Below are positions 49,804 to 50,072 of a stretch of 64,000 bases of DNA, piece by piece; position 1 is the stretch's first letter, and each line of letters opens with the position of its first letter. Source of the stretch: Escherichia coli (GTDB lineage Bacteria; Pseudomonadota; Gammaproteobacteria; Enterobacterales; Enterobacteriaceae); assembly GCF_003018115.1 (NCBI RefSeq), contig NZ_CP027457.1; one strand, given 5' to 3'. Below the pieces are notes generated by a model. The model was not told where the DNA came from, did not search any database, and saw only the letters and a list, made by a program, of their open reading frames with translations. The position numbers and the translations under genes are program-made.

Positions 49804-50072
49804 CTAAAAAACGTCAACATGCAGAAAACTCGCTATATCCGGCAAAAATGGCATCGCGAATGAAGTATGTAACCGCGCACGGGCAAAATACGGACTTCCG
49901 GAAATCTGAAAAATCATCCATATCAACAGGATGCACGAAAAATGAGAGTTCCGTCACTTCCGGAATTAACTTTTCCGTGGCAGTATTCGTCCGGCATAGT
50001 GTATACCTTCACAATAATGACATAATCAACGCAGTTCATGGGGGAGGTGATGGTCCCCCATCTTTTTGTCTG

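Follow-up and report, generated by a model that had tools for sequence, protein, structure and literature searches.

A 269-bp interval between a dinI-like gene and the tail-fibre genes of a lambdoid prophage in yecE is probably an ordinary recombination scar with a ykgJ-like remnant and an inherited terminator

The question raised by this locus is whether the 269 bp that separate a dinI-like gene from the tail-fibre genes of an Escherichia coli prophage hold a functional element, or are what recombination left behind. The interval occupies positions 49804-50072 of the 64,000-nucleotide stretch of DNA analyzed here (the window), and its measured length agrees with the approximately 270 bp given in a preliminary description of the sequence. 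The DNA is 100% identical to the chromosome of E. coli O178:H19 strain 2012C-4431, and aspS (minus strand) and yecD lie beside it. Because yecE is reduced to a stub of 36 codons that ends near 49344, the element is placed as a lambdoid prophage inserted in yecE. The gene to the left (49555-49803, plus strand) appears in the list of open reading frames with 82 aa, matches the Pfam family DinI (PF06183, E=1.6e-17), and is annotated by RefSeq as 'DinI-like family protein'. The gene to the right, a tail fibre assembly-like gene (tfa/DUF4376; RefSeq CDS WP_001373129.1, 50073-50747, minus strand), matches DUF4376 (E=6.7e-18) with a weak additional match to Caudo_TAP. It is convergent with the dinI-like gene, its stop codon lying at 50073-50075. 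Near it on the minus strand is a collagen-repeat tail fibre gene (50966-52678 and beyond), whose protein has a long run of collagen-like G-X-Y repeats; a Hok/Gef toxin gene comes shortly after it in the RefSeq annotation. As argued below, the interval, which lies within the variable 'cargo' zone at the prophage's tail-fibre end, is probably an ordinary scar of recombination, made up of a ykgJ-like gene fragment, a spacer and an inherited terminator.

The interval had been described as non-coding, which overlooked its leftmost component. Positions 49808-49909 (plus strand) hold 33 codons and a stop codon of a decayed ykgJ-like gene, annotated by RefSeq as a pseudogene ('YkgJ family cysteine cluster protein, missing N-terminus'). 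This segment matches the intact copies from four related loci (L007, L008, L018 and L028) over their nt 233-330, with approximately 87-92% nucleotide identity (8-14 differences in 95 nt), and K-12 ykgJ up to window position 49896, with 73% identity. The intact ykgJ-like genes, of 109-116 aa, occupy the same place in the same orientation, convergent with tfa, in related prophages; besides L008, L018 and L028, they are found beside potB (L007) and beside tRNA-Ser (L006/L034). The L007 copy matches the Pfam family CxxCxxCC (PF03692) with E=8e-12. The window segment has YkgJ-family homology and lacks the complete CxxCxxCC domain and a start codon. Because only the last 33 codons remain and the segment alone has no Pfam match, as against the E=8e-12 of L007, it is a pseudogene fragment and not a gene. 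All differences among the intact copies across the shared codons are synonymous, so that their 30-residue C-terminal peptide is identical, while the window remnant carries five amino-acid replacements and the remnant in L023 carries three; these replacements would fit relaxed constraint. The 5' two-thirds of the prophage ykgJ-like gene would have been replaced by the putatively LexA-controlled dinI-like module. The intact copies also contain, within their coding sequence, a 12-bp inverted repeat ATTCGCAATGTC…GACATCGCGAAT, which is annotated as a stem-loop in the P-EibE record (AF151676, L003; positions 3-36 correspond to window 49828-49861) and is degenerate in the window remnant.

The prophage gene is homologous to K-12 ykgJ as far as window position 49896, four codons before the stop codon; past the equivalent point, K-12 ykgJ has different codons and its own terminator. 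It follows from the end of this homology at 49896 that the DNA from the first TTCCGGAA octamer (49896-49903) onward is phage-specific and that the spacer is not ykgJ DNA. The octamer itself encodes L-P-E at the end of the remnant and sits on the boundary between ykgJ-derived and phage-specific DNA.

The spacer (49910-50037) runs from the ykgJ stop codon to the terminator and is a mosaic with three alleles and no conserved open reading frame or structure. The sequence 49910-50072 is carried by approximately 124 of 5426 complete E. coli genomes, in 270 copies overall, with up to five copies per genome and always on the chromosome; among the matches listed, the carriers come mostly from humans or cattle, and many belong to known non-O157 STEC serotypes. 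It is also present in three phage records, including that of the active Stx phage 1720a-02 (98.9% identity). In an alignment, the 17 distinct spacer sequences are mosaics of the three alleles, which differ by block substitutions and by indels of 1 nt and 6 nt. Two segments, ATCTGAAAAAT.ATCCATATCAACAGGATGC and CTTTCCGTG, are nearly invariant across the alleles, and the sequences are closely related and recombining. Among 30 related loci, at least six different left-hand junctions lead into the same spacer. In the Eib prophages (JE86-ST02 and P-EibE), the shared sequence ends at 49905, beyond which lie a dinI remnant, orf156 and eib. The L005-type loci share the sequence from the 10-mer ACTTCCGGAA onward. 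To the left of ACTTCCGGAA in L005 (2400-2500), and likewise in L019, L020, L024, L032 and L013, lies a 3' remnant of approximately 95 nt from a second tfa-like gene (ending …LAVQLREQE*). Because this remnant carries a hairpin and T-run of its own, in the same orientation as the window terminator, a read-in terminator abutting a tfa 3' end seems to be a recurrent arrangement. In another locus (L004, 2803-4011; E. coli FHI_NMBU_11), an IS1414 element (IS256-like) is inserted in the spacer at approximately window position 50015, and tfa is truncated. Among the 19-mer matches to viral contigs, two (L026 and L027) were set aside as unrelated chance matches.

The joint between the dinI-like gene and the ykgJ remnant occurs in the window's form in 50 of the 5426 genomes and in Stx phage 1720a-02. 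A slightly different version is found in O145:H28 strain RM13514 (L035, 2533-2600), in a prophage beside btsS, where only approximately 55 nt of ykgJ are left, followed by a hypothetical gene and nleA. Because of this distribution, in 50 genomes and, slightly altered, in RM13514, the joint predates the prophage lineage of the window. The zone from the joint to tfa holds cargo in relatives, either eib with orf156 or the hypothetical gene with nleA, and is nearly empty in the window.

The interval ends in what the preliminary description had recognized as a plus-strand hairpin followed by CTTTTT, and this reading held up well. At 50038-50061, ATGGGGGA-GGTGATGG-TCCCCCAT can form a stem of eight pairs, five of them G-C, closed by an 8-nt loop, with a dG of approximately -14.5 kcal/mol; CTTTTTGTCT follows. 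This agrees with the form expected of such terminators, a G+C-rich hairpin of at least five pairs with a loop of 3-8 nt and a T-run directly behind it. In a scan of 49200-50400, six terminator-like sites were found against 1.3 expected, and this site was the strongest. We regard 50038-50067 as a convincing predicted intrinsic (Rho-independent) terminator of the plus strand, although its T-run is short, consisting of five T residues after a C. The hairpin has no T-run after it when read on the minus strand, and the terminator is therefore one-directional. It stands downstream of a co-oriented unit both here, where that unit is the dinI-like gene, and in relatives, where it is an intact ykgJ-like gene. 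With the same good probability that we assign to the recombination-scar explanation as a whole, the terminator is the ykgJ-like gene's own, adjoining the convergent tfa stop codon. The stem persists in every copy; in six loci found through an independent spacer anchor (L028-L033), it is unchanged except at one position (T to C in L032). The hairpin otherwise varies at a single position of the loop (G to A), so that compensatory pairs are absent. All copies of the hairpin sit beside the highly conserved 3' end of tfa, and the sequence could therefore have been kept by hitch-hiking or through some function on the tfa mRNA instead of by selection for termination on the plus strand.

What this terminator would now serve is suggested by the DNA upstream of the dinI-like gene. 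A consensus scan found a sigma-70-like promoter at 49489-49518 (plus strand; TTGACA, an 18-nt spacer and AAAAAT; 10 of 12 consensus matches), and the homology to phage 1720a-02 begins exactly at this site, at 49489. Directly after the -10 element, the palindrome CTGTACATAACCACAG (49524-49539; CTG-N10-CAG) was read from the sequence. It fits the LexA operator consensus, and we take it to be a putative LexA box of the dinI-like promoter; this fit implies that the prophage dinI-like gene would be under SOS control. Between the yecE junction and the promoter, ATGCCCCAT occurs twice (49454-49462 and 49465-49473, 11 bp apart), and a similar pair adjoins the spacer in L015. The pair could represent candidate arm-type binding sites of an integrase; two or more copies of ATGCCCCAT occurred in the window in 18 of 100 shuffles.

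The preliminary description had raised the possibility of a long 3' UTR of the dinI-like gene, and this is how we read the interval. The terminator scan found no other convincing plus-strand terminator between 49803 and 50038, so that the hairpin at 50038 would be the first credible one past the dinI-like stop codon. For this reason, a long 3' UTR is the most economical reading, and the remnant and spacer together most likely form a 3' UTR of approximately 265 nt. Under the proposed mechanism, SOS-induced transcription from the putatively LexA-controlled promoter would run on across the ykgJ remnant and the spacer and stop at 50062-50068, at the terminator inherited from the ykgJ-like gene, which would keep the dinI-like transcript from running antisense into the convergent tail-fibre genes. 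In JE86-ST02 (L006), the dinI remnant has a hairpin and T-run of its own immediately behind it, which suggests that formation of the joint deprived the dinI-like gene of the window of its native terminator, so that the gene now depends on the ykgJ-derived one. In five further loci (L009, L011, L014, L017 and L022), a deletion of approximately 118 bp places the dinI-like codons …QNVW directly before the final nucleotides of the ykgJ remnant, which lengthens the dinI-like open reading frame through the spacer; the first octamer reads TTCCGAAA in these loci.

The alternative that fares best is that the spacer and terminator yield a regulatory sRNA, either cut from the 3' UTR of the dinI-like or ykgJ-like gene or made from a promoter of its own just before the hairpin. 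If so, a spacer-derived RNA would connect DNA damage with the regulation of genes of the host or the phage in non-O157 Shiga-toxin-producing E. coli. Upstream of the good terminator hairpin lies an A/U-rich stretch predicted to be mostly unpaired, a -10-like box, which reads TGACATAAT in the window allele and TATAAT in the L005 type, stands approximately 10 nt before the hairpin in all alleles, and the spacer is retained irrespective of its left neighbour. Against this, the consensus scan found no promoter-like site in 49804-50072, and a transcript starting from the -10-like box would be only approximately 35 nt long, essentially the hairpin alone, with a U-tail of five. An Rfam search of 49000-50800 at E up to 10 returned nothing credible, the one match in 49804-50072 being at chance level (E=1.8; 18 bits against a gathering score of 66). 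Folding of the spacer on both strands was not significant against shuffled sequences (z-scores of -0.87 and -1.66). No conserved structure or seed with covariation was found upstream of the hairpin, where the alleles differ by blocks and indels and the L005-type allele departs at approximately 8 of 27 positions and by the 6-nt indel; the lack of compensatory changes in the hairpin itself points the same way. Literature on dinI, prophages and sRNAs yielded nothing relevant, and the 'bully phage' preprint on phage 1720a-02 is about Cro and does not include this region. The separate small transcript raised as a possibility for this interval found no support. We consider an sRNA arising by either route improbable, and the narrower proposal, that a short regulatory RNA is freed from the spacer part of the SOS-induced dinI-like (or ykgJ-like) transcript, slightly more so.

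Much less probable is that the ykgJ-derived fragment serves as a secondary phage attachment site. In favour of this reading, ykgJ-derived sequence at the cargo loci of STEC and EPEC prophages, including prophages in yecE, acts as a 96-bp attB for other phages, termed 'attB-in-PP_2' (Nakamura et al., 2021, PMC8112680). However, the part of the ykgJ-like gene matched by VT1-Sakai and by the Stx phages of that study is nt 10-114, which places the 96-bp site there indirectly, through the phage records, whereas the window keeps nt 233-330, with no overlap. Because of this difference, the window most likely lacks the attB-in-PP_2 site. None of the related loci has a whole prophage inserted in the 3' fragment. 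The strain JE86-ST02 was considered as a case of a phage integrated into ykgJ and rejected, as it carries two tandem lambdoid prophages at tRNA-Ser beside hyaA (L034, 696-1046 and 46080-46404). A ykgJ-like gene stands at the end of each, with a frameshift in one of the two copies, and one of the prophages carries eib; their ends share 525 bp at 92% identity, a similarity that is not a duplicated attachment site.

An equally doubtful proposal concerns the two palindromic octamers, as operator sites through which a dimeric DNA-binding protein, either a phage or a host regulator, would loop or repress the region. Both copies of TTCCGGAA are indeed present, at 49896 and, within the spacer, at 49958-49965. 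They are embedded in the shared 10-mer ACTTCCGGAA and are 62 bp apart from start to start, with 54 bp between them, and not approximately 75 bp apart as originally stated. The octamer is over-represented in the window, with four copies against 1.04 expected (four were reached in 2 of 100 shuffles), and this is the window's sole pair of identical palindromic octamers no more than 100 bp apart. The pairing is nevertheless unremarkable, because 32% of block-shuffled windows hold at least one pair of identical palindromic octamers within 100 bp, and 49804-50072 offers no promoter-like site for such a protein to regulate. The first site is accounted for by the L-P-E codons of the intact ykgJ-like copies, and it is mutated to TTCCGAAA in six loci (the five of L009 type and L013). 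The second is lost in the three divergent alleles, where it is replaced by TTTCAGGA (L007 and L032), ATCCAGGC (L005 type) or GTACAGAA (L013). A functional pair conserved in relatives is left unsupported by these losses. The TTCCGGAA copies are incidental, the first being coding sequence at a module boundary and the second a feature of one spacer allele.

Least credible of all is that the stretch encodes a small protein, either from the 162-aa plus-strand open reading frame (49848-50336) or from minus-strand frames of 38-47 aa: the frames exist, and two are hypothetical proteins in KF030445 (the phage 1720a-02 record), but RefSeq annotates none of them, the 1-nt and 6-nt indels between alleles break every frame across the spacer, and the 162-aa frame, which overlaps tfa and is spurious, as it had first appeared, has no Pfam match and is cut to 56 aa or left without a start codon in 13 of 22 related loci.

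The recombination-scar explanation presents the prophage end as an assembly of host DNA that was captured (ykgJ), a dinI-like gene as a small SOS gene and the reused terminator of a dead gene. The same site bears virulence cargo, eib or nleA, in related prophages of Shiga-toxin-producing E. coli, and the apparent motif pair is explained here by coding history and chance. The feature is real but ordinary, and is largely covered already by existing annotation and literature.

Its parts can be compared with known systems. With intrinsic terminators, the 50038 hairpin shares a G+C-rich stem, a loop, a T-run, a co-oriented upstream gene (formerly ykgJ-like, now dinI-like) and a place between convergent genes; it differs from a typical example in its short T-run after a C and in not being bidirectional, and its function is putative. 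The sRNAs of enterobacteria that derive from 3' UTRs include CpxQ, DapZ and SroC. Like their sources, the interval would be a long 3' UTR with a terminator hairpin that could in principle be processed into an sRNA; unlike them, it has no conserved seed or family match, and its U-tail is short. Compared with the ykgJ-derived sequences described by Nakamura et al. (2021, PMC8112680), the window holds the 3' third of the gene (nt 233-330) instead of the 5' part matched by the study phages (nt 10-114), and no integration is seen in its fragment; in both cases, a piece of ykgJ of chromosomal origin, with remnants of varying length, lies at the tail-fibre or cargo end of prophages, including prophages in yecE. 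A further likeness is to the moron or cargo zones at the tail-fibre end of lambdoid prophages, such as the lambda b region, the exchangeable effector loci and the Eib loci of the P-Eib phages. Unlike these, the window site holds a small dinI-like gene and a spacer of approximately 165 bp, with no effector and no adhesin. It nonetheless occupies the same position, between tfa and the attachment site, and is bordered by the same flanking remnants as the sites that eib with orf156, or nleA, fill in its relatives.
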